DNA from: Escherichia coli
Lineage (GTDB): Bacteria > Pseudomonadota > Gammaproteobacteria > Enterobacterales > Enterobacteriaceae
DNA: 64,000 nt
NCBI RefSeq assembly: GCF_044647545.1
Contig: NZ_CP172818.1
Reading direction: 5' to 3' (one strand)
In this document: positions 51,295-51,626 of the stretch, one piece after another
Numbering within the stretch: position 1 is the stretch's first letter
How the letters are laid out: each line of letters begins with the position of its first letter
The notes under the pieces: generated by a model
Told to the model about the DNA's origin: nothing
Databases searched by the model: none
The model's input: only the letters and a program-made list of their open reading frames with translations
Made by a program: the position numbers and the translations under genes

Positions 51295-51626
51295 TTATTT
51301 TCCCCGGAAGCACATTTACTTCACAATTTATTTACATCAATTTTAACACATCATCAACAATCCGTCTTTATACAGATCGTAAAGATTGATGCCTCGCCTG
51401 CGTGGCCTCTATGGCACTGATTTAAATAATATCTGCGGGCGTGGTCACGTTTGCGGGGCTATATGTACCCGTTTCTGCGATCTAACTCAACCTTTTTAAC
51501 TACAATGATGTGACTTTTTACATAAATTGATTTTACATAAAATAAACATATATCGGGGGAATGATAGATTTGTGGTTGACATGCATCAACAAAGGAAGCC
51601 TTTTAGCTTCCTCGTTGTGCAATAGA

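Follow-up and report, generated by a model that had tools for sequence, protein, structure and literature searches.

The direct repeat upstream of Escherichia coli yejG lies in a published ArcA-bound region and probably consists of two copies of an ArcA element

The closest described counterparts of the locus studied here are the operators of ArcA, the response regulator of the ArcAB redox system, that contain several direct repeats (DRs). Such operators, among them icdA, acs, astC and yejG1, combine an 18-bp box of TGTTA-like elements 11 bp apart with further TGTnA elements nearby, and show ChIP-seq occupancy and ArcA-dependent repression. Two other systems come near: the tandem repeats of the OmpR/PhoB family, with consensus sequences such as GTAAA-N5-GTAAA for CpxR and TGTTTA-N5-TGTTTA for PhoP, and the lac-type class I CRP promoters, whose 16-bp core is centred at −61.5. 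In the ArcA study of Park et al. (2013; PLoS Genet 9:e1003839; PMC3798270), extra ArcA elements lie mainly at 11 or 22 bp, and DR3 of putP, which is shifted by one bp, was left unprotected. The direct repeat upstream of yejG described below shares the box, occupancy, repression and nearby TGTnA elements of the multi-direct-repeat ArcA operators and differs from them in that its proximal copy stands 15 bp from DR2 where their additional elements stand at 11 or 22 bp. Its location is also unlike that of most ArcA repression sites, as it occupies positions −65 to −95, upstream of the P2 core promoter rather than over it.

The repeat is situated in a 332-bp spacer of 37.7% G+C (51295-51626) that separates yejG (50950-51294, minus strand) from bcr (51627-52817, minus strand). 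Coordinates refer to the window, the whole 64,000-nucleotide stretch of contig NZ_CP172818.1 that was analysed, in which yejF on the plus strand is followed by yejG, bcr and rsuA, all on the minus strand. The sequence TTTTACATAAA is found at 51516-51526 (proximal copy, minus strand) and again at 51531-51541 (distal copy, minus strand), 15 bp start to start. The initial annotation, which had described two identical 11-mers with this spacing in an AT-rich spacer of about 330 bp upstream of yejG and downstream of bcr, is accurate on both counts. Both 11-mers read ttttacataaa, or TTTATGTAAAA on the yejG strand, and their identity stops at 11 bp, with t at 51515 against a at 51530 and t at 51527 against a at 51542. 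Neither the 11-mer nor its 8-mer core TTACATAA has a further copy on either strand of the window. When the spacer was shuffled 20,000 times with its dinucleotides preserved, 54 of the shuffles produced an exact, non-overlapping 11-mer repeat within 30 bp; for its 26%-GC core the figure was 25 of 20,000. Block shuffles of the whole window gave a mean of 0.38 such repeats, against three observed, and 64 of 200 shuffled windows contained at least one. The repeat is locally improbable, yet unremarkable alone at the 64-kb scale, and its significance derives from its conservation, not from chance statistics alone.

A scan with the YejG protein, taking one genome per species, provided 80 loci for comparison. 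The two copies are kept in a fixed 15-bp register in Escherichia, Salmonella, Citrobacter, Enterobacter, Kluyvera, Kosakonia, Leclercia, Mangrovibacter and several further genera, inside a conserved promoter-regulatory block of about 95 bp (51456-51549, minus strand) whose mean column identity in a 25-genus alignment is 0.90, compared with 0.53 in both flanks. Read from upstream on the yejG strand, the block consists of an invariant TGTTT, the distal copy, the proximal copy, AAAAGTCACA, TTGTAG, TTAAAAAGG, the P2 −35 hexamer TTGAGT, a 17-bp spacer with an invariant GATC, and the −10 region GGTACATATAGC; it ends at the yejG P2 start mapped by primer extension (51454). Column identity reaches 0.95 in the distal copy, falls to 0.71 in the four bases between the copies, and is 0.86 in the proximal copy and 0.97 in the AAGTCAC that comes next. 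The distal TGTAAA is invariant in all 62 distinct in-register orthologous sequences; non-conservation in orthologous regions, the outcome that the initial annotation had named as speaking against its own proposal, is thus the reverse of what is seen. In the same 62 sequences the proximal copy keeps T.TGTAAAA, with position 51523 being A in 38 and G in 23. The proximal copy is degraded and the distal one retained in the Klebsiella oxytoca group, Siccibacter and Franconibacter, and the block is absent from the orthologous loci of Serratia and Erwinia.

Within the species, 5,425 of 5,426 complete E. coli genomes carry a single copy of the bcr-yejG spacer, a stretch free of annotations. Of these 5,425 genomes, 5,173 show full identity over the 66 bp surrounding the repeat, and only 586 reach 99% or more over the entire spacer. 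Two loci of the wider comparison have peculiarities of their own. That of Citrobacter koseri NCTC10786 has a YejG match only 51% identical and an upstream block nearly that of other Citrobacter, with the single-base insertions TTGTAAGTT and GGTTTGAG; these oddities may reflect assembly indels or a frameshifted gene. At the locus on NZ_CP033850.1, the locus tags skip from EGY17_RS25565 (yejG) to RS25575 (bcr), which suggests a retired gene call in the yejG-bcr spacer.

Published data can be placed directly on the window. K-12 MG1655 aligns to it without indels, window positions being equal to NC_000913.3 positions minus 2,226,943, and the U00096.2 offset of 2,224,965 is exact from the published ArcA site sequence and agrees with the approximate coordinates in the table of Shimada et al. 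Primer extension located the yejG starts P1 and P2 at 2,276,299 and 2,276,419 of U00096.2 (Chung et al. 2013, dPeak; PMC3798280), which convert to 51334 and 51454, both on the minus strand; the primers used map to 51267-51287 and about 51408-51428. P1 has an extended −10 element, TGtTAAAAT (51348-51340). The P2 core promoter (51454-51490, minus strand) has its −35 hexamer TTGAGT at 51490-51485, GATC at 51482-51479 and the −10 hexamer TACATA at 51467-51462, in a −10 region that is a poor match and stops seven bases short of the start. The repeat lies upstream of both promoters, the proximal copy at −62 to −72 and the distal copy at −77 to −87 of P2, and the two together at −182 to −207 relative to P1. 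Occupancy by sigma70 at yejG is 1462 under aerobic and 56 under anaerobic conditions (Myers et al. 2013). As regards the P2 core itself, positions 51456-51490 are almost invariant across genera, including the 17-bp spacer with its GATC (51479-51482). An RpoH-holoenzyme SELEX peak at 2,276,452 (window 51487) and a weak sigma32 ChIP-chip signal both fall within this core, in which a scan with the sigma32 consensus found nothing.

Two ArcA ChIP-seq regions upstream of yejG were reported by Park et al. (PMC3798270, Tables S1, S2 and S4). The peak of the upstream region, yejG2, is centred at 2,276,488 (window 51523), with a low enrichment of 1.9 and no ChIP-chip value. Its predicted site, ATGTTTATTTTATGTAAAATCAATTTATGTAAA..., is listed as ATGTTTATTTTATGTAAAATCAATTTATGTA at 2,276,484-2,276,514 of U00096.2, which corresponds to window 51519-51549 on the minus strand, and it spans the entire distal copy together with 8 bases of the proximal 11-mer. 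The site contains an 18-bp ArcA box, ATGTTTATTTTATGTAAA (51532-51549, minus strand), published at 2,276,511 on the minus strand with 17.6 bits, in which DR1 (TGTTT, 8.0 bits) and DR2 (TGTAA, at 2,276,500, 8.5 bits) are 11 bp apart centre to centre. The ATGTAAA of the distal copy is this DR2. The published DR3, of 1.4 bits and 10 bp past DR2, is distinct from the proximal copy. The downstream region, yejG1 (51317-51360, minus strand; 2,276,282-2,276,325), is the stronger operator and has four direct repeats at intervals of 11, 12 and 11 bp, scoring 8.6, 9.7, 9.8 and 5.3 bits, which lie over P1 from −26 to +18 and include a third ATGTAAA. Beside DR3 of yejG1, position 51330 is A in the strain under study and G in K-12. 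Expression of yejG was 11.9-fold up in the E. coli arcA mutant (PMC3798270), a gene-level figure that does not separate the contributions of yejG1 and yejG2, and the gene was derepressed 2.4- to 5.8-fold in Salmonella arcA mutants. These published data show that ArcA occupies the repeat region in vivo and that it represses yejG about 12-fold, which bears out the early proposal that the repeat is a binding site for a regulator of yejG.

For scoring, an 18-bp box matrix and a 7-bp single-element matrix were derived from 114 boxes of Table S3 (PMC3798270), with yejG1 excluded. The yejG2 box scores 17.8 bits, at the 75th percentile of the training boxes and the fourth best in the 128 kb scanned, and with the boxes of the P1 region (20.5 and 19.0 bits) the spacer holds three of the four best boxes in that sequence. 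The element ATGTAAA scores 8.7 bits, the 75th percentile of real elements, in both copies as well as in the P1 operator; three of its six occurrences in the 128 kb are on the yejG strand of the spacer (Poisson P about 6e-7). The box is retained in all 77 orthologous loci that have the block, with a median of 17.8 bits and a minimum of 12.5, and its register relative to the −10 hexamer is the same in 66 of the 77 and at most 2 bp off in the rest. The 18-bp ArcA box to which the distal copy contributes DR2 is canonical, of the form TGTTT-N6-TGTAA, and universally conserved. We consider, with a probability of about 0.7, that the repeat as a whole represents two copies of the ArcA element ATGTAAA, a common variant of TGTTA, in the upstream one of two operators that shut off yejG at low oxygen.

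The proximal copy is harder to accommodate. It stands 15 bp from DR2, outside the 11/22-bp ArcA register despite its 8.7 bits, and the in-register positions score only −3.8 and −0.2 bits in the element matrix. No partner elements exist at +11 or −11 of the proximal copy (−15.5 and −8.3 bits in the ArcA matrix). The next strong ArcA element, TAGTTAA (7.8 bits), is 21 bp beyond it and only partly conserved. In about 66 of the 77 loci, the proximal position nonetheless keeps an ArcA element that scores 6.5 bits or more. Next to it is AAAAGTCAC (51510-51518, minus strand), which is invariant or nearly so and scores −0.2 bits in the ArcA matrix; it may hold the CRP right half-site TCACA or the site of another factor. 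The proximal copy could work as an ArcA element, deeply conserved although its 15-bp spacing is non-canonical, or be an element shared by ArcA and CRP that compete for 11 bp, a proposal that we put forward tentatively and regard as possible, not probable.

The best-surviving alternative divides the repeat between two proteins. The distal copy would remain DR2 of the ArcA box, the proximal copy would supply the left half-site for CRP at a class I site that activates P2, ArcA would act as an anti-activator, and the identity of the 11-mers would be a relic of duplication. The candidate site, TGTGACTTTTTACATA (51509-51524), matches 8 of 10 core positions as TATGT-N6-TCACA on the yejG strand, where its right half is the invariant GTCACA; of the roughly 64,000 16-mers in the window, just 27 reach 8 or more matches. 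Centred at 51516.5, it lies at −62.5 relative to the P2 start (51454), and starts mapped by primer extension may err by about 1 nt. TCAC is invariant in 62 of 62 sequences, and the G found at 51523 in 23 of them turns the left half into TGTGT, which gives a 9/10 match where the rest is intact (9 of 77 loci). A match of at least 8/10 is held at the unchanged place in 58 of the 77. Moreover, the Klebsiella oxytoca group has altered the proximal copy and GTCAC (to GTCGC) jointly while retaining the ArcA box, and a CRP genomic SELEX peak of low resolution covers the yejG-bcr spacer.

Compared with lac-type class I promoters, the candidate is alike in having a 16-bp core with one perfect half-site (TCACA/TGTGA), its centre lying one helical face upstream of the −35 hexamer, a weak −10 hexamer plausibly in need of an activator, and a CRP SELEX signal in the spacer. 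It differs in that its second half-site, ACATA in E. coli beside the perfect TGTGA, matches only 3 of 5 positions, TATGT lacking the important G, and in that its centre is 1 bp off the classical −61.5. Further points tell against such a division. The SELEX authors chose other boxes (51476-51491 and 51616-51631), and the resolution of their peak cannot pick among the three candidates; our literature search yielded no data on crp-dependent yejG expression and no CRP footprint, and one study predicts control of yejG by Cra (repression), not CRP. Without an origin by duplication, identical 11-mers serving two proteins would also be coincidental. A CRP half-site in the proximal copy is in our view the less likely possibility. 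Of the two boxes nominated from the SELEX peak, one, the candidate TGCGATCTAACTCAAC of Shimada et al., lies in the P2 core (51476-51491), and the other, TGTGCAATAGATCACC (8/10, 51616-51631), overlaps the bcr stop codon and is conserved in the closest genera only.

If the repeat is read as two ArcA elements, phosphorylated ArcA would nucleate on the DR1-DR2 box at low oxygen. Because the operator does not overlap the P2 core promoter, we infer the route of P2 repression, for which two courses can be envisaged. ArcA might lower P2 activity by extending its occupancy, across the proximal copy and TAGTTAA, in the direction of the −35 hexamer; the 54 bp that would be covered are comparable to the 57-60-bp ArcA footprints at paaA and phoH (PMC3798270). 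Alternatively, ArcA might block an activator that shares the proximal copy, the candidate being the CRP-like site at −62.5. That the two 11-mers are identical most likely goes back to an old 15-bp tandem duplication of the ArcA element, both copies of which would then have come under selection. In the literature we found no footprint or mutational test of the yejG2 site. Looping between the two ArcA operators was considered and set aside, as the block and the yejG start codon are 247, 229, 197 and 139 bp apart in different genera, with no helical phase kept.

A rather improbable alternative is that some other protein, for example a Fis-type nucleoid protein or a dedicated regulator, reads the TTTATGTAAAA repeat and that ArcA is incidental. 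The 15-bp period fits no response-regulator dimer, the distal flanks TTTT..ATC and AAAAGTCAC are conserved beyond what ArcA needs, a Fis ChIP-seq region lies over the adjacent palindrome (Myers et al.), an indirect indication at most for a nucleoid protein, and the ArcA enrichment of 1.9 is weak. However, none of the known motifs tried fits, and the distal copy is already explained by its ArcA box score, by its 11-bp partner TGTTT and by the arcA-dependent expression of yejG. The OmpR/PhoB-family sites for CpxR and PhoP resemble the locus in being direct repeats with GTAAA or TGTTTA, and differ from it in spacing and mismatches: the repeat offers only GTAAA-N10-GTAAA where CpxR requires N5, and the PhoP-like TGTTTA-N5-TGTAAA at 51548-51532 has two mismatches in its second half. 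Both copies match the DnaA box TTWTNCACA at 8 of 9 positions (TTTTACATA), as do 119 one-mismatch sequences in the window, and the distal copy conserves its mismatching base, which on the yejG strand is A in 60 of 62 sequences, so that selection is not driving it towards the DnaA consensus. A Cra match extends to 9 of 16 positions only, a level common in the window, and a Cra-like half-site in the P2 spacer was negative. No site for TyrR, OmpR, IHF, Fis, NarL, RstA, EvgA or MarA/SoxS/Rob was found in register when the repeat was compared by eye with their consensus sequences.

Directly after the bcr terminator, an FNR-consensus-like palindrome, TTGACATGCATCAA (51576-51589), is context and not part of the repeat; a perfect TTGAT-N4-ATCAA is found there in 11 of 25 genera. 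It was listed by Myers et al. (2013) as a predicted FNR site of 14.1 bits with no FNR ChIP peak, inside a Fis ChIP-seq region, and is conserved although it seems to be unoccupied. Within the yejG coding region, at about 51201-51216, a GalR operator, GCGGAATCGGTTCAAC, has been predicted in the literature, and a Cra ChIP-exo site has been described as intragenic in yejG.

It is very unlikely that the repeat acts after transcription, as part of a 5′ leader made from the promoter-like TTGATG-17-TATCAT (51589-51561), as a small RNA, or through the small ORF MFILCKINLCKKSHHCS, which traverses both copies with a five-codon period. The TTGATG-17-TATCAT motif, on the yejG strand, was picked both by a promoter scan and by Shimada et al. 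2014, is the only sigma70-like motif upstream of the repeat, and would start transcription at about 51553; every in-register orthologue has an ATG or TTG start codon, and 15 bp is a multiple of three. Nevertheless, sigma70 paired-end ChIP-seq and primer extension gave only P1 and P2, both downstream of the repeat (PMC3798280), and the TATCAT hexamer is conserved in the closest genera only. The ORF varies from 3 to 35 amino acids, with early stops in Kluyvera and Pluralibacter past which the DNA is still conserved, the RNA fold has a z-score of +0.40 against shuffles, and the sole Rfam match is at chance level (a eukaryotic lncRNA family, 21.7 bits against a gathering score of 80). The bcr transcript is separated from the repeat by a terminator hairpin (51594-51611, minus strand; GGAAGC-N6-GCTTCC followed by a T-run), which the consensus scan missed and for which GC-rich stems of differing, compensating sequence occur at the same place in most genera. 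Since it lies upstream of P1 and P2 and downstream of this hairpin, the repeat is not expected to be transcribed.

That the repeat arose by chance or is neutral in an AT-rich region, or that it is generic DNA of the UP-element or curvature kind to which no specific protein binds, is scarcely credible: the region does have 26% G+C and several A-tracts, and repeats of this kind do turn up in about a third of shuffled windows (64 of 200), but column identities of 95% (distal) and 86% (proximal) against 53% in the flanks, invariant G and T positions that exclude mere AT-richness, and a location at −62 to −87, beyond the UP zone, all contradict it. The suggestion of a UP-element-like sequence, made as an alternative in the initial annotation, finds no support, as the copies lie upstream of the −38 to −59 zone of P2, and the UP-like A-tract TTAAAAAGG, which adjoins the P2 −35 hexamer, is a separate conserved element.

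The repeat is real, functional and ancient, and, as part of a published ArcA-bound region, it is already known and largely explained. Its scientific importance is modest. The point that reaches further is the retention of a full-strength ArcA element, throughout the history of the Enterobacteriaceae, at a spacing for which the current model of ArcA binding does not provide. If the proximal copy were indeed shared by ArcA and CRP, yejG P2 would amount to a compact switch between redox and carbon signals and would offer a natural test case for out-of-register repeats in the ‘plastic’ architecture of ArcA sites, to which AAAAGTCAC and the over-conserved P2 core, with its RpoH-holoenzyme SELEX signal, might add a further factor. 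For yejG, a gene without known function, tight shut-off by ArcA through two operators, perhaps with tuning by CRP, helps to situate the gene in aerobic and carbon-limited physiology.
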